This document shows positions 3-13,617 of a stretch of DNA of 14,644 nucleotides, one piece after another. A model generated the notes under the pieces. It worked only from the letters and a program-made list of their open reading frames with translations. It ran no database searches and was not told where the DNA came from. Position numbers and translations under genes: made by a program. Position 1 is the stretch's first letter. Each line of letters opens with the position of its first letter. Source of the DNA: Candidatus Dadabacteria bacterium (GTDB taxonomy: Bacteria > Desulfobacterota_D > UBA1144 > Nemesobacterales > CSP1-2); assembly GCA_040289575.1 (NCBI GenBank), contig PSLL01000002.1:56752-71395 (forward strand), in the 5' to 3' direction.

Positions 3-767
3 GCAGGTGCAGCCGTATCTACAAAGTGGAACGGTCTGTATGCCGTTGAGTTTCTGGGATTTATTGCGTTTCTTGTGATTTTCTATAGAGAATGGGTGGT
101 CAATGCGCAAAGAAAAGACTCTCCTATCTTTGTAGCCTTAAAAATACTGCCCCGAATCATATCCATTTTTATCTTAATTCCAATTGGGATATATATGCTT
201 GTTCATCTCCCGTTTTTTCTTTATGGGAATTCCCTTGGTGATTTCATATACCTTCAAAAGAGTATGTATGCCTACCATAAGGACCTCAATGCGACACACC
301 CATACGCTTCCCTATGGTGGAAATGGCCCCTTCTTCTTAGACCAGTCTATTTATACCTTGAGAGTAATGGACAGGAGAGCGCACATATATATACAATCGG
401 AAACCCGCTTATATGGTGGACGGGATGCGTGTTTCTCATATTGGGTGTGATTGAGGTAATACGCAAGGAACTGCCTGGTCTTGCCTTTGCGATACTTAGC
501 GTTTTTGCATACTGGCTTCCCTGGGCGCTTTCACTGAGAAAGCTCGTGTTTATCTACCATTTTCTCCCATCGCTTCCCTTTGTCATTCTTATAATCGCAT
601 ATTTTCTCAATCTCATCTGGGCGAGGGCTAGGTACGGAAGGGTTTTTGTCGTCGTCTATCTTGTCGCCGCTTTGGGTATGTTTGTGTATTTCTATCCTAT
701 AATTGCGGCGGTTCCGATTTCAAATGATTCCCTTGGTCGTTTCTTTTGGCTAAAATCGTGGAGATAG
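3..767 (+). CDS. Dolichyl/polyprenyl-phosphate-mannose-protein mannosyltransferase (PMT/GT39-like), 5'-truncated by window edge
   Basis: The frame is open from position 3 (AGAAVSTKWNGLYAVEF...), so the ORF-track start at 75 is internal. Contains the KW.G motif and C-terminal motifs typical of bacterial PMTs (HPYASLWWKWPLLLRPV, IGNPLIWW, FIYHFLPSLPF, YFYPI), plus several hydrophobic helices. Stop TAG at 765-767. Confidence 0.85.
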   Translation, partial: AGAAVSTKWNGLYAVEFLGFIAFLVIFYREWVVNAQRKDSPIFVALKILPRIISIFILIPIGIYMLVHLPFFLYGNSLGDFIYLQKSMYAYHKDLNATHPYASLWWKWPLLLRPVYLYLESNGQESAHIYTIGNPLIWWTGCVFLILGVIEVIRKELPGLAFAILSVFAYWLPWALSLRKLVFIYHFLPSLPFVILIIAYFLNLIWARARYGRVFVVVYLVAALGMFVYFYPIIAAVPISNDSLGRFFWLKSWR

Positions 768-812: not shown

Positions 813-1439
813 TTGATAAACACATTTAGAAGATCAGATATCCTAAGCAGTGTTATACTTGGAGAGATTGTTGCGGTGTTTCTCATCTTAATCTCAAAGA
901 GTCTTGAGCGAGATATTCCGATATTCGATGTTTTTATAAAGTCTCGGTGGCTAATCCTCATATCTGTTCCCGCCCTTGTGACACTTTCGGTCTATGTGGC
1001 ATTTTGTTTAGGACGGAGGCGCCCTGTGTTATTTCAGTTTGGGAAGTTTATTATTATTGGTGTTGCAAATACAGCCATAGATTTTGGGATACTCAATCTC
1101 TTAATATTTCTTACAGGCATAGAAAGGGGGCATCTCTATTCCGTTTTTAAATCCATCTCTTTCATATTCGGGATTATAAACAGCTATTTGTGGAATAAGT
1201 TTTGGACATTTAAGAGCACCGAAAACAAATGGGCGGGAAGGCAATTCATTCGTTTTATTTCGATAAGCCTAGTCGGATTTGGAATCAATGTGGCTACTGC
1301 CTCTTTTGTCGTAAACTTTATAGGGCCTGTGGGTGGAATCTCCACAAGGCTCTGGGCAAATATCGGTGCATGTGTGGCTATAGTAGTTTCAGTTTTCTGG
1401 AATTTCTTCGGATATAAATTCATGGTCTTTGAAATGTAA
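813..1439 (+). CDS. GtrA-family membrane protein (putative lipid-linked sugar translocase) with N-terminal hydrophobic extension
   Basis: GtrA-like motifs QFGKFIIIGVANTAIDFGIL, NSYLWNKFWTF, QFIRF and WNFFGYKFMVF. 208 aa. TTG start, exact start uncertain. Confidence 0.85.
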   Translation: MINTFRRSDILSSVILGEIVAVFLILISKSLERDIPIFDVFIKSRWLILISVPALVTLSVYVAFCLGRRRPVLFQFGKFIIIGVANTAIDFGILNLLIFLTGIERGHLYSVFKSISFIFGIINSYLWNKFWTFKSTENKWAGRQFIRFISISLVGFGINVATASFVVNFIGPVGGISTRLWANIGACVAIVVSVFWNFFGYKFMVFEM

Positions 1440-1457
1440 GAGCCCTCGAATCTCCCA

Positions 1458-2654
1458 TTAATACCCTACCCATCCGAATTTATTAATCCACAGAACCCCC
1501 CATAGATTCACCAAAATCCCGATGCATATGAGTATCTTGTGATACCATCTTATCCTATCTCGCATTCCTTTTACCGTAAGTAAGAACAAAAATGGGTAGA
1601 AATCCATAGCAAACCTATACCCGAATTGGGCAAAACCCCAAGTGCCGTGTGTAAATTCCAAAAACGCTATTGGAATAATCGAGAGCCAACATCCGACGGT
1701 AATCCTGTTTCTTATATCAGCAAATAGGGCGTAGATAAATGCGGGGGTTGTAATCCAGATTGCCATTCCTGTCCATGAGGGCATAACATATGGGAATTTT
1801 GGGAGAAAAATTGGCAGTCCCGCAAATATTACCTTGAGATGACGCGGTATGTATGTAATATCAAATATGCCCTTTTTATACCAGGGTTCTTTAAGTATGC
1901 CCGGTATTAGATAATAGGAAACATCTAGAGGGGTGCCGAATCTGAGAAGATTATAAATGGAGTTTAGAAAGACAAATATGCCGACTCCGAGTCCTAGATA
2001 AAAAAGGGGCTTCGGGTCAATCCTTTTATTTTTAAGACACCTATCAGAGAGCATAACTACGAAGAAGGGTAAAGAAAAAATAGTGGGTAGACGAGACCAG
2101 TATGAGGCTCCTATTAGAAGGCCGACTAAAAAAGGGTGCTGGCCTTTGAGTGTTGCATATATTGCGAGAAATAGAAACCCAACCGATGTCACCTGTGAGA
2201 AAGTCCAGACACCACCTGCAGTGGCGATCCACCAGTGTATGGTGCCGAATCCAAACATTACCGTCGCCCAGAGCCTTACACTGCGGTTTTTGGTTATCTC
2301 TCCTGTGACCAAGAATATAAGAGCGACATTCAGGCTTCCAATAATTATTGAGGCAAGGGTCTGGTCTGTAGATAGCCCGAAGATATATACGAATGGCAGG
2401 AGAAGAATTGCAGGCATTGGGGGTGGGACGATGTAGTACTTGCCGTCTTTTGGGACTAGTTCAAGCCATTTTACCCTCTCTGTAAGGTAGAGCCTTCCGT
2501 GAATGAATGCGTCGGCGAGTCGGACAAAATTGTTATAAGGGGTTGGATGCCCATCGGTTGTAAAATAGTAGGCTAGAAATGTAATTGCAAAGAGAAGCAG
2601 AGGGGTAATTATAGAGAACCATTTACCCTTAAATACGGACCCATTGGTTTGCAT
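1458..2654 (-). CDS. Polytopic membrane protein, putative GT-C-fold glycosyltransferase (paralog A, 398 aa, intact)
   Basis: Many hydrophobic segments. Motifs shared with B and C: LADAFxHGRL, PPMPAILL, FGFGTIHW, GASYWSRLP, YNxLRFxTP, TTPAFIY, QFGYRxAxDFYPF. ATG at 2654 (MQTNG) preferred over the GTG at 2699 because GGAGAAGG lies upstream and it does not overlap the restored stop of paralog B. The glycosyltransferase function is inferred from topology and context. Confidence 0.7.
   Translation of the reverse strand: MQTNGSVFKGKWFSIITPLLLFAITFLAYYFTTDGHPTPYNNFVRLADAFIHGRLYLTERVKWLELVPKDGKYYIVPPPMPAILLLPFVYIFGLSTDQTLASIIIGSLNVALIFLVTGEITKNRSVRLWATVMFGFGTIHWWIATAGGVWTFSQVTSVGFLFLAIYATLKGQHPFLVGLLIGASYWSRLPTIFSLPFFVVMLSDRCLKNKRIDPKPLFYLGLGVGIFVFLNSIYNLLRFGTPLDVSYYLIPGILKEPWYKKGIFDITYIPRHLKVIFAGLPIFLPKFPYVMPSWTGMAIWITTPAFIYALFADIRNRITVGCWLSIIPIAFLEFTHGTWGFAQFGYRFAMDFYPFLFLLTVKGMRDRIRWYHKILICIGILVNLWGVLWINKFGWVGY
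1480..1529. repeat. 50-bp inverted repeat copy (partner 6365-6414), 2 mismatches, 32-bp perfect core (1480-1511)
   Basis: Reverse complement atatgcatcgggattttggtgaatctatggggggttctgtggattaataa versus 6365-6414 atatgcattgggattttagtgaatctatggggggttctgtggattaataa. Confidence 0.85.
1712..1757. repeat. 46-bp inverted repeat copy (partner 6137-6182), 2 mismatches
   Basis: Reverse complement tggattacaacccccgcatttatctacgccctatttgctgatataa versus tggatcacaacccccgcatttatctatgccctatttgctgatataa. Confidence 0.85.
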
Positions 2655-3906
2655 GTTCCGATTTTCGCCTTCTCCAATCAATCCCAAAGACTCGCCCACC
2701 CGAACTTATTAATCCACAAGACTCCCATAGATTCACAAGGATACCGAGACAAATAAGTAGCTTGTGTTCACGCGTCAAATTAGAATCCGTTCCCAAAGTG
2801 GATTTTATTCCAAGTGCGGTAAGCATAAGTAAAAACGGATAGAAATCTAATGCAAAACGGTAGCCGAACTGGATCCAGCCGACCCCGCCGTGTGTAAACT
2901 CCAGAAGGGCTGTAGGGATAATAGCCGACCAGCAGGCAAGGGCAATCTTGTTTCTTCCCGCAAAAATCGAGTATATAAAAGCCGGCGTCGTAATTAGAAT
3001 TGACATACCCATCAGTGAGGGCACTACATAGGGCGGCTTAGATGTGAAAACCGGTGGTTTTAAAAAAAAGATCCAAAGGTGCTTTGGGATATATGAGATA
3101 CTAAAAAGCCCTTTTGGATACCACCACGGCTCCAATTTAGCCTCTATGGAATAGGCAATATCGAAGGGTGTGCCGAATCGAAGATAGTTGTATGCAAAGT
3201 TCAAAATAACAAATATTCCCACACCCAATCCCAATTTGAGGAGTGGGATAAGATTAATTCTTAGGAAAGACGGCTTGTTGGATTTCTTAAGCCACTTATC
3301 AGAGAGCATAATGAGAAAGAATGGAAGGGATAGAATTGTAGGAAGTCTAGACCAATAAGATGCCCCGAGGAGAAGTCCGATCAAAAATGGGCGTCGGTTT
3401 GTAAATGTCTCGTATATAGCCAGTGTAAGGAAGAGAAAAGACACTACATGGGCAAGATACCAGCCCTTGCCAATGCTTGCGAGGTACCAGTGAATCGTTC
3501 CGAATCCGAAAAGAATAGACATCCAAATCTGTAATCTTCTATTGTTGGTGAGTTGTCTCATAACCAGATAAGATAGAGAAACATTTAAGCTCCCCCAGAA
3601 AACAGAGGCTAGTGTTTGATTGGCATTAAGCCCAGAGATCGCAACCTGCGGTAGAAGAAGAATGGCCGGCATAGGAGGATAGATAACATAGAACCTTCCA
3701 TTTATAGGTATAAGCTCGTTTAACCAGAGTGGTTTTTCCAAAACATATAGTCTTCCATGCAGAAAGGCGTGTGCAAGCGGCACAAAGTAATTATATGGTG
3801 TTGCTCCCCCTTCACCGGTAATGTAATAGACAATGAAGGTTAATATGAAGAAAATGAGAGCAACTGAAATGTGGGAGCGGCTTTTTAGGAGCGATAGAAA
3901 TTTCAT
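2629..3906 (-). CDS. Putative GT-C-fold glycosyltransferase (paralog B); apparent 1-nt frameshift near the 3' end, restored stop at 2678-2680
   Basis: Colinear with paralogs A and C up to ILVNLW, then diverges (ESCGLISS...). Adding one G at the run 2724-2726 restores GVLWINKFGWASLWD-TGA (409 aa). Confidence 0.72.
   Translation of the reverse strand: MKFLSLLKSRSHISVALIFFILTFIVYYITGEGGATPYNYFVPLAHAFLHGRLYVLEKPLWLNELIPINGRFYVIYPPMPAILLLPQVAISGLNANQTLASVFWGSLNVSLSYLVMRQLTNNRRLQIWMSILFGFGTIHWYLASIGKGWYLAHVVSFLFLTLAIYETFTNRRPFLIGLLLGASYWSRLPTILSLPFFLIMLSDKWLKKSNKPSFLRINLIPLLKLGLGVGIFVILNFAYNYLRFGTPFDIAYSIEAKLEPWWYPKGLFSISYIPKHLWIFFLKPPVFTSKPPYVVPSLMGMSILITTPAFIYSIFAGRNKIALACWSAIIPTALLEFTHGGVGWIQFGYRFALDFYPFLLMLTALGIKSTLGTDSNLTREHKLLICLGILVNLWESCGLISSGGRVFGIDWRRRKSEHANQWVRI
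3335..3462. repeat. Perfect 128-bp inverted repeat, left copy (partner 5660-5787), inside paralog B
   Basis: Manual base-by-base comparison of the reverse complement: tggtatcttgcccatgtagtg...tctagacttcctacaat is identical. Encodes WYLAHVVSFLFLTLAIYETFTNRRPFLIGLLLGASYWSRLPT. Confidence 0.95.
3655..3702. repeat. Perfect 48-bp inverted repeat, left copy (partner 5420-5467), inside paralog B
   Basis: Reverse complement is aatggaaggttctatgttatctatcctcctatgccggccattcttctt, encoding NGRFYVIYPPMPAILL. Confidence 0.93.
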
Positions 3907-4020
3907 GAATGCCGAGTCTCAAAATTATTTTTATTATGGGTTCCCCCTAACCCACAATGACTTTACAGAAGATTATTCGGAGCACTATAAATATAGCCTT
4001 ATTATTCCAAGCCCACAACA

Positions 4021-5124
4021 TTAAAAAGCCCACCTCCCTTGTATGAATAGGGATAGAAACAAGCCAAAGAACAGGAGTGAAAAAAAGGTGATTAAATAAT
4101 TTACCCCTCTGATTCTGCCGAACAATGAAATGGCGATAAAAAGGGGAAACATAGAGAGTGTGTAACGGGGTATGCTTAGCCAAAATGAGGTTGATGTTAC
4201 AATCAGCCATGTGATGAGCATATATATACCGTATGAAATACGGAGGCGTATACCTACCCATATGGTTAAGAGAAACCCCAAAATCCCGAATATGGCCTCA
4301 GCCCAGCCTACAAGTATTGAATCGGCTGGTGAGCGCCACAGGATACTGCCCAAAGCGCCCAAGAATCCTCTCCACGGAAGATCAAGCGTCTTTGCCCAGT
4401 GTTCTCTTTGGATTTGGAGGAACTCAAAAGGATTGCCGAAGGCTATGTAATTAACGGCTAGATACAATAGAAAACCCAGTGGAATAAGAGACAGCCAAAG
4501 AATGTCCTTCTTTATGCTTCTTATGTGAAACCCCTTTTGGAATATGTACTCTAGTATAAGGGCGGGTAGCAATATAATCCCTGTGATCCTGGTTAAAGAG
4601 GCGGGCATTCCAATAAGGCCAGAAAGCCACCATCTTCCTTTTCTTCCATAGTAGAAGCTCGCGATTGTAAGGGCCAGAAAAAGGCTTTCCGTGTAACCGG
4701 CATGTAGAAAATAAGATGTCGGAAATATGGAGAAGTAAAATACCGTTCTCAGAGCAGTTTCTTCCGGATAATCTAAAAGGGTCAGCTTATAAAGGTAGAA
4801 GGCGGCAGAGGCGTATGCGAGATTTGAGACTATGAGGGCAGAGAGCATATAGTCCCTAAATATAAAGGCAAAGAGCCTTATGAGAATTGGATAAAATGGA
4901 AGAAAAACAATACGCAGGTATCTTTCACCTATAATTGTATTTGAATATCCTCTTTGTGCGATATCGAGATAATGCGCTGTATCCCATCGATTCCAGATTG
5001 TAATCAGTGACGGAGGGATTTCATTTTGTAGAATTATAAAGACTAAGTAGGAGAAGAGAAATGTTCCAATCGTTGTGATAACTATTATGGAGGCGAGTTC
5101 TTTGGTTGGTCTTCGGTCATTCAT
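4021..5124 (-). CDS. PIG-V-like (GT76 / Mannosyl_trans2-like) membrane mannosyltransferase
   Basis: Motifs RWDTAHYLDIAQRGY, FLPFYP, FPTSYFLHAGYTESLFLAL, TRITG, F.QIQREHW and SIPRY; multi-pass hydrophobic protein of 367 aa. Confidence 0.82.
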   Translation of the reverse strand: MNDRRPTKELASIIVITTIGTFLFSYLVFIILQNEIPPSLITIWNRWDTAHYLDIAQRGYSNTIIGERYLRIVFLPFYPILIRLFAFIFRDYMLSALIVSNLAYASAAFYLYKLTLLDYPEETALRTVFYFSIFPTSYFLHAGYTESLFLALTIASFYYGRKGRWWLSGLIGMPASLTRITGIILLPALILEYIFQKGFHIRSIKKDILWLSLIPLGFLLYLAVNYIAFGNPFEFLQIQREHWAKTLDLPWRGFLGALGSILWRSPADSILVGWAEAIFGILGFLLTIWVGIRLRISYGIYMLITWLIVTSTSFWLSIPRYTLSMFPLFIAISLFGRIRGVNYLITFFSLLFFGLFLSLFIQGRWAF

Positions 5125-5419
5125 TTTTTTTATAGAAAAGAAGGCTTTTTTAATTTATCATTGACCTATGCAATTTCAATAATATAGGAGGTTCAATTAT
5201 TTTATTGATATGGGGCTCTCGAGATTTGTAAACAGTAATTGCTTCCCGTTTTTTATCGCTTTCACATTTTTTATACTGGCTTTCTTGATTTACTCCGCAA
5301 CGGGGCCTGGCTTTCCGACCCCTTATAATTATTTCACATGGCTTGCAGATGCGTTTCTCCACGGGAGATTGGGTCTTACAAAAGCCTCATCTATTTATCT
5401 CGGCGAACTAATACCTTCT

Positions 5420-5467
5420 AATGGAAGGTTCTATGTTATCTATCCTCCTATGCCGGCCATTCTTCTT
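5420..5467. repeat. Perfect 48-bp inverted repeat, right copy (partner 3655-3702), inside paralog C
   Basis: Direct sequence comparison; same symmetry axis as the 128-bp pair (coordinate sums 9122). Confidence 0.93.
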
Positions 5468-5659
5468 ATGCCATTTGTCGCCGTATGGGGTCCGACATTT
5501 AATCAGACCCTCGGATCGGTGCTTTTTGGGAGTCTGAATGTATCTCTGTTTTATATTCTTATGGGGAGATTGACACAGGATTTAAGGATTCAAATCTGGA
5601 TGACACTACTTTTTGGTTTCGGTACAATCCACTGGTATATTGCCTCAGTGGGTTCGGCT

Positions 5660-5787
5660 TGGTATCTTGCCCATGTAGTGTCTTTTCTCTTCCTTACACT
5701 GGCTATATACGAGACATTTACAAACCGACGCCCATTTTTGATCGGACTTCTCCTCGGGGCATCTTATTGGTCTAGACTTCCTACAAT
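5660..5787. repeat. Perfect 128-bp inverted repeat, right copy (partner 3335-3462), inside paralog C
   Basis: Direct sequence comparison; identity stops abruptly on both sides. Confidence 0.95.
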
Positions 5788-6136
5788 ACTTAGCCTGCCG
5801 TTTTTTATTATAATGCTTTCCGATATGTGGCTTCTTAAATCAAAAGAGGGTTCAATCTTAGGGAAGATTAATCTAAAGCCCCTTATCCGGCTCGGCTCGG
5901 GGGTCGGGGTATTTGTTCTGGTTAATTTTACATATAATTTCTTGAGATTTCACACCCCCTTTGATGTTGCCTATTTCATGTCCGGTATTGATACCCCATC
6001 CCATGAGCCTTGACTTAATAAGGGTCCATTTAGTCTTTCATATATCCGTTATCATCTCTCAATCATCTTGGCAAAACCCCCTGTTTTTACCAATGAGCCT
6101 CCATATGTTCTTCCATCATTAGTCGGTATGTCTATA

Positions 6137-6182
6137 TGGATCACAACCCCCGCATTTATCTATGCCCTATTTGCTGATATAA
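6137..6182. repeat. 46-bp inverted repeat copy (partner 1712-1757)
   Basis: 44/46 identical by manual comparison. Confidence 0.85.
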
Positions 6183-6364
6183 AGAGCAAAATAACCCTAG
6201 CCTGCTGGTCTGGTATTATTCCGATTGCTTTCCTTCTTTTTACAAAAAACGGAACCGGATGGACCCAGTTTGGTTATAGATACGCAATGGATTTTTATCC
6301 GTTTTTACTCTTACTAACGGTTAATGGGATCGGCGATAGGATAATGTGGCACCACAGGCTGGCT

Positions 6365-6414
6365 ATATGCATTGGGATTTTAGTGAATCTATGGGGGGTT
6401 CTGTGGATTAATAA
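6365..6414. repeat. 50-bp inverted repeat copy (partner 1480-1529)
   Basis: 48/50 identical by manual comparison; same axis as the 46-bp pair (coordinate sums 7894). Confidence 0.85.
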
Positions 6415-6447
6415 GTTTGAGTGGTTTAGGTGGAGATAGTCGAAGAA

Positions 6448-6476
6448 TTGACCTCTCTGACTATCTTGTGTATTTT
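6448..6476 (+). promoter_or_regulatory. Candidate sigma70-type promoter for the CPBP protease gene
   Basis: TTGACC (6448-6453), 17-nt spacer, TATTTT (6471-6476) in the 88-bp intergenic gap. Pattern match only. Confidence 0.35.
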
Positions 6477-6527
6477 TAAGGTCTCATCTTTTTAGGCGGT
6501 TTTTGTCTTCTCTTCTCGGACTGATTT

Positions 6528-7133
6528 ATGGAAAATCAGACAAGTATTGCCAAGAATAAATCTAGGCTTGAATTAATAAGCCTCCTTGGGGTGTATGCGT
6601 TTGTTGTATGTGCGATTACAGTTCTTAGGAGATTTCTCCCAGGATTTGTTATACCGCTCTCTGCGGTCTTGCTATTTTCTGCGCCATTCGTAATGAAAAG
6701 TAATGTAAGTGGGCTTAAACCCAATCTCGATGGAGTGCTTTTAGGGATTGCCGTATCGGTTGTCATTCTTTCTCTATACGTGATTATTGTGAACAAGCCT
6801 CTGCAACTCGGCAGGGTCTCGTATTCGCTTATCGTATTAGAGCTCTTTCTTGTTGCTTTGCCGGAAGAGGCCTTTTTTCGTGGGTACCTCCAGGAAAAGA
6901 TAGGAAATGATTTAAAAGGAGTCTTGGTAGTCAGTCTGTTCTTTGCCGTCGGGCACTTTGTTACGGGATGCATCGGCGGCGGATTGGGCGGCGTCGGCTG
7001 TGCAAAAACCCTACTTACCTTTTTCCCATCAATCGTTATGGGCTATATGTATGCCACATCGGGGACGCTCTGGGGAAACATAATGTTTCACTTCCTCTCT
7101 AATATCATATACGAGGCTACAGGCGGATTGTGA
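6528..7133 (+). CDS. CPBP/Abi (CAAX type II) family intramembrane glutamic endopeptidase
   Basis: Motif 1 EEAFFRG, motif 2 FAVGH, motif 4 HFLSN; hydrophobic protein of 201 aa. Confidence 0.9.
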   Translation: MENQTSIAKNKSRLELISLLGVYAFVVCAITVLRRFLPGFVIPLSAVLLFSAPFVMKSNVSGLKPNLDGVLLGIAVSVVILSLYVIIVNKPLQLGRVSYSLIVLELFLVALPEEAFFRGYLQEKIGNDLKGVLVVSLFFAVGHFVTGCIGGGLGGVGCAKTLLTFFPSIVMGYMYATSGTLWGNIMFHFLSNIIYEATGGL

Positions 7134-9040: not shown

Positions 9041-12000
9041 ATGGGGTCAACGGGATTCCCTCCAAAACAGGGCCTTTATGATCCGCAATTTGAGCATGAT
9101 TCCTGCGGCATAGGATTTGTTGTAAACATAAAAGGAAAGAAGTCAAACGAGATTGTGCGTCAGGCTTTAACCGTTCTCGTAAATCTCAACCATCGCGGTG
9201 CATGTGGATGTGAGGCAAACACGGGCGACGGGGCGGGAATTCTCCTACAGATTCCCCATGCGTTTCTCAAAAGGGTTTGCGCCGGACTGAAAATCTCTCT
9301 TCCTTCTCCCGGAGAGTATGGTGTCGGAATGGTATTTCTGCCCCCTGATCCGGCCCTTCGTCGGGATTGTCAGAGGCGTTTTGAAGAGATTATAAAAGAG
9401 GAGGGACAGCGCGTTCTCGGATGGCGCACAGTACCCACAAACAACGCTACCTTAGGAAATACTGCAAAATCGCATCAGCCGTTTGTACGTCAGGTTTTCA
9501 TCGGGCGCAATTCTAAGATTGCGGATGATATGGCATTTGAGCGCAAGCTCTATGTTATTCGCAAGCGCGCTGAAAATGCCATCCGATATTCGGGAATAGA
9601 AGGCGGTGGCTATTTTTATATTCCCAGCCTTTCTTATAAGACAATTGTCTACAAGGGAATGCTTATGGCGGAGCAGGTTTCGGAATTCTATACAGAACTG
9701 ACAGAGCCCGATATGGAAACCGCTCTTGCCGTTGTCCACTCGCGTTTTAGCACAAATACATTTCCAAGCTGGGAGCGCGCCCATCCGTATCGTTACCTTA
9801 TACACAACGGAGAGATAAATACACTTCGTGGGAACATAAACTGGATGCACACGCGCCAGTCAATGTTTGCGTCTGAACTCTTTGGAGATGATATTAAAAA
9901 GATTCTGCCAATAATCAATTCCGATGGAAGCGACTCGGCGATGTTTGATAACTGCCTTGAGTTTCTAATCCTCTCTGGCCGTTCATTGCCCCATGCAGTT
10001 ATGATGATGATCCCGGAACCTTGGTCAAACCACGAGAGTATGAGTGATGAGAAGAAGGCATTCTACGAGTATCACGGCTGCCTTATGGAGCCTTGGGACG
10101 GTCCCGCTTCGATTGCATTTACAGACGGCATAAGGGTTGGCGCAGTGCTTGACAGAAACGGTTTGCGCCCATCTCGATACTACGTCACAAAAGACGGGCT
10201 TGTGATAATGGCATCCGAGGTCGGGGTGCTTGATGTTCCGCCAGAGCGCGTACTCCACAAAGGGCGTCTCCAGCCGGGGCGTATGTTTCTAGTAGACACA
10301 CAACAAAGGCGCATTATATCCGATGAGGAATTAAAGCTCAGGATTTCAACCGAGTGTCCATACCGACTGTGGCTAAATGAAAATCTGGTATCGCTTGAGG
10401 ATTTGCCAGAACCCCCTCATGTCTCGAAACCGAATGACTATATGCTCATACAGCGTCAGCAGGCGTTTGGGTATACATTTGAGGACCTCCGAATCATTAT
10501 GGCTCCTATGGCAAAAGACGGTGTTGAGCCGGTTGGATCTATGGGCAACGACACACCAATTGCGGTGCTCTCCGATAGACCACAGCTTTTGTACAACTAC
10601 TTTAAACAGCTATTCGCTCAGGTTACAAACCCCCCCATTGATGCCATACGCGAGGAGCTGATTACGGCAACTGAAACAACGATTGGCCCAGAGAGAAATC
10701 TTCTGAAACCAGAGCCGGAAAGCTGCCGTCAAATCAAGCTTAAAACCCCGATACTCACAAATGAGGAGCTCGAGAAGCTCCGTCATATAAATATCCCTGG
10801 CTTTAAGTCCGTTACGCTTCCAATCCTCTTTAAGGTTTCTGAGGGCGGACCCGGATTAGAAAGGGCTATGGATGAACTATTCCAAAGGGCAAGCCATGCC
10901 ATATCTGAAGGGGCAAACATAATAATCCTCTCCGACCGGGGAATTGACCGTGAGAATGCCCCGATACCCGCGCTTCTTGCAGTATCAGGGCTTCATCACT
11001 ATTTAATTCGTGAGGGTGCGCGTACAAAGGTTGGATTGGTTCTTGAATCGGGGGAGCCGCGCGAGGTGCATCACTTCTCGCTTCTGATTGGATACGGCGT
11101 GGGGGCAATCAATCCGTATCTTGCGTATGAAACCCTGGACGACATGATTCGTCAGGGGTTGCTCACCGGAATGACATATAAGGAGGCTGTAAAGAGATAT
11201 AACAAGGCCATTGTAAAGGGAGTCGTCAAGGTAATGTCAAAGATGGGCATATCTACGATTCAGAGCTATCGTGGAGCCCAGATATTTGAGGCCCTGGGGC
11301 TCAACCAGAGTGTGATTGACAAATATTTCACTTGGACCCCTTCCCGTATAGGAGGCGTGGGGATTGATGTGATTGCCGATGAGGTTAGAATGCGCTATAT
11401 GCACGCCTTCCCAGACCGCCAGGTTGATGGAAAAACGCTTGATGTGGGCGGAAAATATCAGTGGCGCCAGGACGGGGAATATCACATGTTTAACCCCGAA
11501 ACAGTGCACAAACTCCAGTACGCATGCCGAAATAACAACTACAAGGCCTTCAAGGAGTATACAGAGATTGTAAACAACCAATCTAAAAAGCTCTGTACAA
11601 TACGCGGGCTTTTGGAGTTTAAATTTGCGCCCGAACCCATTCCAATTGAAGAGGTGGAGCCAGTTGAATCAATTGTTAAGCGCTTCAAAACGGGGGCTAT
11701 GTCCTACGGTTCTATAAGCAAAGAGGCGCACGAGAGTCTGGCAATCGCTATGAATCGCATTGGCGGTAAGAGCAATACAGGTGAGGGTGGAGAAGACCCG
11801 GTAAGATATATTCCCGACCCCAATGGGGATTCGAGAAACAGCGCAATTAAGCAGATCGCATCGGGAAGATTCGGTGTTACGAGCCTGTACCTTACAATGG
11901 CAAAGGAGCTGCAGATTAAAATAGCCCAGGGCGCAAAGCCCGGAGAAGGGGGACAGCTTCCCGGGGCAAAGGTCTATCCATGGATTGCAAAGGTGCGACA

Positions 12001-13617
12001 CTCGGTTCCGGGTGTAGGGTTGATTTCGCCTCCTCCGCACCACGATATCTACTCAATTGAAGACCTGGCTGAATTGATACACGACCTTAAAAATGCCAAT
12101 TCTCAGGCTCGAATCAGCGTTAAACTCGTATCCGAGGTGGGTGTCGGTACCATAGCCGCCGGTGTAGCAAAGGGGCACGCCGATGTTGTTCTGATCAGCG
12201 GATATGAAGGTGGAACGGGTGCATCACCTCAGACGAGTATTCAACATGCTGGTCTGCCGTGGGAGCTGGGACTTGCTGAGACGCACCAAACGCTGCTCCT
12301 CAATAATCTACGCAGCCGAATTGTAATAGAGACCGATGGGCAACTCAAAACCGGACGGGACGTCGTAATAGCGGCTTTGCTCGGTGCAGAGGAGTTTGGG
12401 TTTGCTACGGCTCCTCTTATTGTGCTTGGATGCATCATGATGCGTGTATGCCATCTTGATACATGCCCCGTAGGCGTGGCAACTCAGAATCCAGAGCTTC
12501 GCAAGAGGTTCCAGGGAAACCCCGATCACGTTGTTAACTTTATGCGGTTTATTGCCCAGGAGATGCGCGAGCTGATGGCACAACTCGGCTTCCGCACGGT
12601 CAATGAGATGATTGGACGTACGGATAAACTCGAGATGAAAAAAGCTATAGACCACTGGAAGGCAAAAGGACTCGATTTCTCAAATATTCTTTATCAGCCG
12701 AACGTTTCTCCTGATGTGGGGAGATATTGTCAGATTCCTCAAGACCATGGGCTCGAGAATTCCCTTGATAATCAGGTTCTATTAGAACTCTGCAAACCGG
12801 CTCTTGAGAGAGGCGAACCCATTGAGGCTGTACTCCCTATTCGTAATATCAACCGTGTGGTAGGAACCATTTTAGGAAGTGAACTCACAAGGCGATACGG
12901 CGCGGAGGGACTGCCCGATGACACTATTCGTCTGCATTTCCAGGGTTCGGCGGGGCAGAGCTTTGGCGCATTTGTGCCGAGGGGTATTACTCTTATTCTT
13001 GAAGGGGATTCAAACGACTATATTGGCAAAGGGCTTTCGGGCGGCAAGATTATTGTCTATCCTCCTAGGGGCTCGACATTTGTTCCTGAGGAAAATGTCA
13101 TTATCGGCAACGTTGCGTTCTATGGGGCAACATCTGGAGAGGCATATATTCGCGGCATGGCTGGTGAGAGATTCTGTGTGAGGAATAGCGGTGTTAATGC
13201 CGTGGATGCGAGTACATGACGGGCGGGCGCGTTGTTGTTCTTGGCCCGACCGGACGGAACTTTGCAGCTGGTATGTCGGGAGGCATAGCTTATGTCCTGG
13301 ATGAGGCTGGTGATTTCCATCGCCGGTGTAATCAGGATATAGTCTACCTTGAGCGGATTGAGGATGAAGAGGAGATTTTAGAAGTAAGAGAGATGATTCG
13401 TAGACACGCTGAGTATACAGAGAGTCAGAGGGCTTGGGAGATTCTATCCTCATGGGAGGATATGGTGCCAAGGTTTGTCAAGATCATGCCCAAGGACTAT
13501 AAGCGCATGATTCAAGCAATGAAGCGTGTTCAGCAAGCGGGTTTAAGTGGCGAAGAAGCCATTATGGCTGCATTTGAAGAAAATAAGCGCGACCTTGCGC
13601 GCATCAGCGGAAATTAA
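9041..13617 (+). pseudogene. gltB: Glutamate synthase large subunit, frameshifted near 13203 (ORFs 9041-13219 and 13216-13617)
   Basis: Ntn-amidotransferase start [38 protein letters not shown] domain [14 protein letters not shown]; [3Fe-4S] motif [16 protein letters not shown]-terminal GXGXG domain continues in a second frame as [27 protein letters not shown]. Gene identity is certain; whether the frameshift is biological is not. Confidence 0.9.

Follow-up and report, generated by a model that had tools for sequence, protein, structure and literature searches.

Is a long perfect inverted repeat, placed in frame within two oppositely oriented paralogous genes, a sign that the DNA between its copies is switched, or can it be left behind when one paralog is copied over the other? 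The question is raised by a locus of an uncultured soil bacterium (genome G000), which we analyzed in a window of 14,644 nucleotides, an N-free stretch of contig C82 (C82:56752-71395); positions without a contig name are those of the window. The window encodes three paralogous membrane proteins, here called A, B and C, and contains R1, a perfect inverted repeat of 128 bp with one copy in B and the other in C. A sequence-only reading of this DNA had proposed R1 as the crossover site of a candidate invertible, shufflon-like switch. Our results make it likely that R1 is instead the product of recent, non-reciprocal gene conversion, in which a segment of C was copied into B. The repeats, and the genes in which or between which they lie, are the following:

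3335..3462, minus strand: R1 in paralog B, codons 149-191; presumed recipient of the conversion
5660..5787, plus strand: R1', the copy in paralog C, codons 151-193; presumed donor
3655..3702, minus strand: R2 in B, codons 69-84; k=31 read contigs (see below) break at its borders
5420..5467, plus strand: R2', the 48-bp partner in C
1480..1511, minus strand: R3, near the 3' end of paralog A
6383..6414, plus strand: R3', 32-bp partner of R3 in C, close to the 3' end of that gene
1458..2699, minus strand: paralog A, a predicted GT-C-fold membrane protein of an unnamed family; likely start ATG at 2654
2629..3906, minus strand: paralog B, GT-C fold according to a structural model; its tail overlaps A
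4021..5124, minus strand: PMT_2-like GT-C gene, 'PIG-V-like' in the sequence-only reading (Pfam PF13231, E 2e-7)
5210..6439, plus strand: paralog C, one frame, with a TGA at 6011-6013 in the assembly

Perfect inverted repeats in old paralogs

The sequence at 3335-3462 is the exact reverse complement of that at 5660-5787 over all 128 bases, and the repeat is maximal and sharply delimited, as one extra base at either end breaks the identity (2/2 tests). It begins 444 nt into B and 450 nt into C, both numbers divisible by 3, which places the two copies in the same codon register, the first codon being number 149 in B and number 151 in C; 2197 bp (3463-5659) separate the copies. The repeat, its coordinates, register and sharp edges had all been described correctly from the sequence, and the quoted difference between B and C in the codons of the shared peptide GFGTIHW is visible in our nucleotide alignment. 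R1 lies inside a longer inverted homology of 344 nt at 78% identity (3278-3621 / 5501-5844), and the same repeat search returned a further inverted homology of 69 nt at 90%. The sequence-only reading had missed two additional perfect inverted repeats, one of 48 bp between B and C (R2) and one of 32 bp between A and C (R3), both maximal and in register, as well as the fact that the TGA codon of C is TGG in sequencing reads.

Over their whole length B and C are identical at only 771/1164 aligned nucleotides (66.2%). When the vector of matches and mismatches between them was shuffled 20,000 times and the longest identical run was scored, the longest run obtained was 37, and runs of at least 48 occurred in 0/20,000 shuffles; R3, with its 32 bp, is on its own only marginal as a significant patch, given that the shuffles reach 37. 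A comparison of degenerate codons that specify the same residue in B and C leads in the same direction: identical codons were found at 40/41 such positions in the 128-bp tract and at 15/15 in the 48-bp tract, versus 61/186 outside both tracts. It had been argued that selection at the protein level cannot explain the identity, and these counts bear the argument out, so that recombination between the paralogs is required. In the genome as a whole, a scan for exact repeats of at least 45 bp found 119 pairs, of which 24 were local (within 20 kb on one contig) and only three of these inverted, namely R1, R2 and a 52-bp pair on contig C79; of the three, R1 is the longest. The C79 pair (837-888 / 4244-4295 in locus L060) flanks 3.4 kb with a fragment of a DDE (IS240-type) transposase and an open reading frame (ORF) with a SWIM finger, and this element is probably a transposon with terminal repeats.

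The source genome (3.06 Mb in 126 contigs, 44% G+C, 95% complete, of soil origin) is a short-read metagenome assembly whose scaffolds contain N runs; two of these form the window borders (C82:56713-56751 and 71396-71407). The 55-bp overlaps at many of its contig ends suggest a maximum assembly k of 55, shorter than R1, which the assembler probably crossed by means of read-pair information. These properties would favor an artefact of assembly or binning (collapse, chimera or mixture of strains), in which case B and C would truly differ where the assembly makes them identical; besides, one assembly base, at 6013, is contradicted by all four of the sequencing runs consulted. Collapse was also the alternative named in the sequence-only reading. 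The read-level data come from four soil runs (X1 to X4) of two studies, in the form of Logan k=31 contigs aligned on positions 1400-6600, with a depth at the locus of about 20-25x or more in X1 and X2 and about 4x in X4; repeats of 32-128 bp are longer than k, and these contigs provide no phasing across them. In both X1 and X2 a separate 128-nt contig spans exactly 3335-3462, with a depth of 49.1 in X1 (25.0 and 24.3 on the flanks) and 33.7 in X2 (19.6 and 28.6 on the flanks), and no differing letters inside the tract are listed in the contigs of these two runs. A 128-nt unitig at about twice the flank depth means that R1 is present in the population as two identical copies, and the repeat is not an assembly collapse. 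With a single unitig, exact borders, doubled depth and no variant letters in contigs from two studies, an artefact of any of these kinds is hardly credible. The coincidence that 128 equals k+1 for an assembler run at k=127 was also considered and dropped, because the contig ends of G000 overlap by 55 bp. The exact 40-nt core of R1 had 0 matches when searched against metagenome contigs.

Selection acting directly on the nucleotide sequence could also maintain the identity, if an RNA element or a binding site were embedded in both genes. Our searches in the window found no support for such an element, and what they did find makes it extremely improbable: Rfam gave 0 matches across the whole window, folding of the tract has a z-score of 0.30, with 115/200 shuffles folding at least as well, and orthologous C genes depart from the tract at 11-17% of positions, so that its DNA is not conserved.

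Probable copying of C into B

The direction of the exchange can be read from relatives, which comprise genomes (G001 onward) and metagenome-contig loci (L045-L048). The 128-bp tract shows an identity of 0.89 to C of G001 and of 0.83 to C of L045, against usual C ortholog levels of 0.83-0.91 and 0.77-0.83, respectively. Its identity to B genes is 0.81 for G002 (usual level 0.87-0.89), 0.69 for G013 (0.69-0.80) and 0.59 for G040 (0.63-0.69). In a tree calculated from the 128 tract columns only, B of G000 is placed with C of the same genome, next to C of G001, with a support of 0.968, whereas a tree from which the tracts were left out separates A, B and C into clean clades. The C-type identities, taken together with the conflict between the segment tree and the remainder, identify C as the donor and B as the recipient. 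On both sides of the tract, on the other hand, B is identical to B of G002 at 0.87-0.89 and C to C of G001 at 0.83-0.91; as the flanks are parental on both sides, the sequenced state is a replacement without crossover.

A similar replacement is seen in a second species. B and C of G002 are identical at 0.88 in the tract columns and at 0.61 elsewhere, and on the tract columns B of G002 nests within the C clade of the genus, with supports of 0.90-0.92. Judged from these alignments and trees, the same 43 codons of B appear to have been overwritten by C at least twice, in two species. The tract of G002 B is closer to C of G002 (0.88) and L045 (0.85) than to C of G000 (0.81) and G001 (0.80), with 15-19 differences to the former pair versus 24-26 to the latter; the overwriting in the G000 and G002 lineages was thus probably independent, although the support for this is modest.

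The identity of the two copies, its excess over the rest of the alignment, their presence as two copies in the reads, the donor direction, the parental flanks and the recurrence make it likely that the 128-bp inverted repeat goes back to a very recent gene conversion, non-reciprocal and directed from C to B. Codons 151-193 of C would have been copied over codons 149-191 of B by a short ectopic homologous recombination, presumably dependent on RecA; because B and C are divergent, the converted patch appears as an inverted repeat. Genes for the relevant functions are found in G000: RecA has two full-length matches (C90:27369-28160, E 1e-134, and C95:961-1749, E 1.5e-128), which could be a real duplicate or a contamination introduced by binning, and MutS is present. 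Several conversions may have taken place, leaving the 48-bp patch between B and C, the 32-bp patch between A and C, and the earlier overwriting in the sister species. An older, partly decayed patch may have supplied the local identity used by the recent conversion, as conversion at only 60% identity with MutS present would otherwise be hard to explain. Every conversion would in turn raise the local identity and ease the next one, and the segment might in this way have become a self-reinforcing hotspot. RecA might also use the tract to invert 3463-5659, and rare inversions, by analogy with the tuf genes discussed below, might arise as a by-product.

Several points weigh against conversion as the whole explanation. 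The k=31 contigs, lacking phasing across the repeats, leave room for a minority subpopulation with the inverted arrangement. Three nested in-register repeats, together with recurrence in two species, would look the same if the locus were maintained as a recombination substrate. The sequences flanking the tract, at only about 60-80% identity, form a poor substrate for RecA with MutS present, so that the conversion we favor would have needed the older patch, already partly decayed, to seed it. Moreover, the 192 bp between R2 and R1 are unconverted, with 58% identity, which requires either two events or patchy repair. Finally, the assignment of the donor is based on 128 columns.

Inversion, recombinases and orientation

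As had been pointed out from the sequence, a crossover within R1 would be in frame and would invert 3463-5659 (2197 bp), and no recombinase is found in the window (none among the 12 ORFs scanned with Pfam); register, coordinates and scan agree with both statements. Crossovers in R2 or R3 would be in frame as well. The invertible switch built on them is, however, unsupported, in view of the C-type tract, the parental flanks, the constant orientation of the PMT_2-like gene and the lack of serine recombinase matches. A search of the genome for serine and tyrosine invertases, which had been named as a check, gave a divided answer: neither Resolvase (PF00239) nor Recombinase (PF07508) has any match in G000 (95% complete), while tyrosine recombinases (PF00589) have 7 matches, none of them on C82 and all on other contigs.

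The other check that had been named, the orientation of the PMT_2-like gene in related genomes, revealed a single arrangement: relative to its flanks, the gene has an identical orientation in 13/13 scorable loci, window included, although this is a test of low power, the relatives having no long repeats. A locus was scorable if it contained the PMT_2-like gene plus at least one flank (the window, G001, G002, G003, G008, G022, G028, G032, G036, G040, L045, L046 and L047); G004, G006, G009 and G013 had no PMT_2-like match, and L048 had the gene without a flank. Searched against metagenome contigs, the PMT_2-like protein identified 7 loci, with flanking genes in 3 only (L045-L047), all in the standard arrangement. 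The longest exact matches between paralogs in seven other genomes or loci measure 11-53 bp; those between A and C reach 29-53 bp within the genus, and in four more distant genomes the longest paralog matches are 11-17 bp.

The G000 assembly contains no contig with an alternative junction. No joint was seen at the 128-bp repeat either, which is uninformative, as the k=31 contigs break at the borders of R1. Run X4 shows 'opposite strands' joints at 3703|5420 (at the 48-bp repeat) and at 1512|6383 (at the 32-bp repeat), which we rejected as evidence either way, since k=31 is shorter than these repeats and either orientation yields identical junction words. X4 leaves 3488-3661, 5398-5419 and 1400-1511 uncovered; with the entry to and the exit from a repeat uncovered, a unitig passes through it, and the parental and recombinant paths are equally likely. 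A scan of 3850-5300 for promoters and terminators gave 7 promoter-like sites versus 4.1 +/- 2.2 in shuffled sequence, which is not evidence of promoters. In sum, the evidence for switching at this locus is nil.

Two kinds of switch nevertheless deserve to be weighed. In one, which needs no recombinase, RecA-driven crossovers in R1 (and in R2 and R3) would reversibly flip the segment, exchanging in frame the first 148-150 residues of B and C, turning the PMT_2-like gene around, rewiring the promoters and creating subpopulations with different surface glycans. It would be in keeping with three maximal repeats in the same codon register, with R1 as the longest local inverted exact repeat and only 3 inverted pairs among 24 local ones, and with the homogenization of the same segment in two species; passages of PMC5485169 describe conversion and inversion of tuf genes as outcomes of the same events, and a swap would move the putative defect of B, a histidine at residue 46 (H46) and a 3' frameshift, from one backbone to the other. 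Nevertheless, a cassette used for variation is unlikely: every informative record shows the reference orientation only, both genes have parental flanks, the PMT_2-like gene points the same way in 13/13 loci (weak evidence, in relatives without long repeats), the converted B gene of G002 lies outside the cluster, which detaches the recurrence from any invertible cassette, and the tract is only 0.89 identical to C of G001 and hence not a maintained site. A stronger version, in which the three nested repeats act as a recombinase-free shuffling device that generates chimeric GT-C enzymes and rewires promoters in subpopulations, with recurrent conversion keeping the crossover site alive and H46 and the frameshift of B serving as an on/off element, seems to us quite doubtful. 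In the other kind, an inverton or shufflon, a site-specific recombinase would act in trans on sites within the 128-bp tract. The 7 tyrosine recombinase matches elsewhere in G000 might supply the enzyme, and intragenic invertons are known, as documented in parts of 10.1101/2023.03.11.532203. This is very improbable, as there is no recombinase in the window or on C82 and G000 has 0 serine recombinase matches, R1 is a 128-bp homology tract within a 344-nt stretch of 78% homology and not a short site, the repeat of the intragenic inverton described in those parts of 10.1101/2023.03.11.532203 has 11 positions, and relatives with the same gene order do not have the repeat.

With conversion of B by C as the favored explanation, the locus would be a clean and well-dated case of old, diverged paralogs undergoing gene conversion over a short tract, and also of a recurrent hotspot, in which the same 43 codons were overwritten in two species, within an undescribed GT-C family and a poorly known soil lineage. 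It also advises caution, because perfect inverted repeats in divergent paralogs are to be expected as scars of conversion and are not by themselves markers of a switch. Should spanning reads reveal both orientations, the locus would gain greater importance as an invertase-free, in-frame domain swap between membrane glycosyltransferases.

The predicted glycosylation cluster and its known counterparts

A, B and C have no Pfam matches, and in NCBIfam the putative glycosyltransferase family LA_3751/LA_3752 scores 36.4 bits for A and 37.8 bits for C, against a cut-off of 200, with no match for B. A database search in which 8000 candidates were scored returned 1775 relatives at E <=1e-5, the best 120 of which are unnamed or annotated as 'hypothetical protein'. 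Three of these 120, B-like proteins from other metagenomes (P0006, P0007 and P0009; 646-647 aa), are fused to a GT2 domain, which links this unnamed GT-C family to polyprenyl-phosphate sugar synthase. An AlphaFold model of B, calculated from 44 sequences, has a pLDDT of 86.7 and a pTM of 0.89, and at E <=0.001 it has 12 matches in the PDB, of which 11 are GT-C enzymes (among them AglB, ArnT with a TM-score of 0.55, PglB, ALG12 with 0.56, and OST subunits) and one is a GPI-transamidase chain; Pmt4 and PimE rank just below the E 0.001 line. On the strength of this model, A, B and C are predicted to be GT-C-fold glycosyltransferases of an unnamed family; they are old paralogs.

GT-C enzymes typically carry an acidic residue in the first extracytoplasmic loop, with a catalytic or metal-binding role. 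Residue 46 of B, a candidate for this position, is His (codon 3769-3771), where A and C have Asp; in the family alignment this column is Asp or Glu in 43/44 members, and His occurs only in B. Near the 3' end of B, a run of G at about 2722-2726 contains a -1 frameshift, through which roughly the last twelve residues give way to a tail of 31 residues. No indels or base differences across B are listed in runs X1-X3, which cover the gene, so both His46 and the frameshift are real in the population. The ratio of nonsynonymous to synonymous substitution rates (dN/dS) between the G000 and G002 orthologs is 0.15 for B and similar for A (0.16), C (0.13) and the PMT_2-like gene (0.14), values that place B, too, under purifying selection over the longer term, as far as the sequences indicate. 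In C, position 6013 is G (TGG, Trp) at full depth in 4/4 runs, which means that C is intact in those populations; the in-frame TGA at 6011-6013 either arose as an error in assembly or belongs to a variant present in the source sample. As a separate observation, a contig of X2 ends at 2715 with 19 loose letters that align with nothing here and resemble a library adapter.

Around the paralogs, the neighborhood includes, in addition to the genes given above:

813..1439, plus strand: GtrA-like gene, putative flippase partner (Pfam PF04138, E 9e-22)
3..767: C-terminus (4TMC) of a PMT-type (GT39-like) gene, split by the left scaffold gap, with the N-terminus upstream of the window

A GT2 gene of 681 aa lies just upstream of the window together with the PMT N-terminus, so that the cluster comprises GT2, the PMT-type gene, GtrA, A, B, the PMT_2-like gene and C. 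By its gene content, this is predicted to be a lipid-carrier glycosylation cluster, in which the Gtr-type set of GT2, GtrA and GT-C genes occurs together. Further downstream, gltB is split by a frameshift at 13216-13219 into frames of 1392 aa and 133 aa, which match positions 2-124 and 136-188 of the GXGXG domain. The site lies beyond the stretch covered by the runs (1400-6600), and either a real frameshift or an error may be behind it.

The gene order is kept across two families: PMT(+), GtrA(+), A(-), B(-) where present, PMT_2-like(-), C(+), CAAX protease(+), NadE(+), GltB(+). The number of paralogs per locus varies from 1 to 3. In G000, G036 and G040, B occupies the place between A and the PMT_2-like gene; G001, G002 and L045 have no B at this place, and the B gene of G002 is located on a 3.6-kb contig of its own, beside a gene of the GSDH family. 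The complete chromosome of G022 (C1) has a B-like gene (10938-12122 in locus L034) on the strand opposite to that in G000, G036 and G040, and its cluster gave no match to an A-like gene; this is a different rearrangement of the same cluster. In G002 (L031:1-121, L032:1-121) and G032 (L040, L041), contigs break inside C, at about residues 110-165, near the position of the tract. The C-gene contig ends of G002 overlap by 121 identical bases, and no repeat partner was found for the breaks in either genome.

How does this locus compare with known systems? Its GT2, GtrA-like and several GT-C-fold genes recall the three-component GtrA/GT2/GT-C systems of extracytoplasmic glycosylation, as presented in the relevant parts of PMC11127046 and PMC3688519. 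Unlike those systems, A, B and C belong to no Pfam family and remain below the NCBIfam cut-off, and the locus has no phage context and no known phase variation of the gtr type. Intragenic invertons, according to parts of 10.1101/2023.03.11.532203, rely on site-specific recombinases and short repeats (11 positions in thiC) and appear in both orientations in reads; the likeness lies in inverted repeats within coding sequence, in an inversion that would recode the protein, and in genes for surface modification. Here, in contrast, the homology tract is long, there is no local recombinase, and no second orientation was observed in the unphased k=31 contigs. Two testable marks of an invertase switch, a local recombinase and short conserved sites, are therefore missing from the locus.

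In shufflons, in inversions of the hsdS type and in the RecA-dependent sap inversion of Campylobacter fetus, parts are exchanged in frame between oppositely oriented cassettes, so that a surface or specificity protein varies. These systems possess either a dedicated recombinase or long conserved recombination regions common to all cassettes, and their switching has been demonstrated. It is in geometry only that our locus resembles them, as parts could be exchanged in frame between oppositely oriented genes.

The closest parallel, and the textbook case of such conversion, is offered by the inverted tufA and tufB genes of Salmonella enterica. In the passages of PMC5485169 devoted to them, they undergo RecA-dependent gene conversion and evolve in concert, conversion takes place about once per 10^5-10^6 generations, and inversion accompanies nearly half of those conversions that were selected at one site (PMC5485169, citing Hughes 2000), conversion and inversion of the intervening DNA thus arising from the same recombination events. 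As with tuf in those passages (PMC5485169), the paralogs studied here are inversely oriented on one chromosome, and a continuous tract was probably exchanged non-reciprocally, with the donor unchanged. On the other hand, the two copies of R1 are 2.2 kb apart, the paralogs are far more diverged than those of tuf (66% identity), the tracts are far shorter (128, 48 and 32 bp), and the proteins are not kept alike. In its testable features, the locus agrees with ectopic gene conversion between inverted paralogs, of the type known from tuf.

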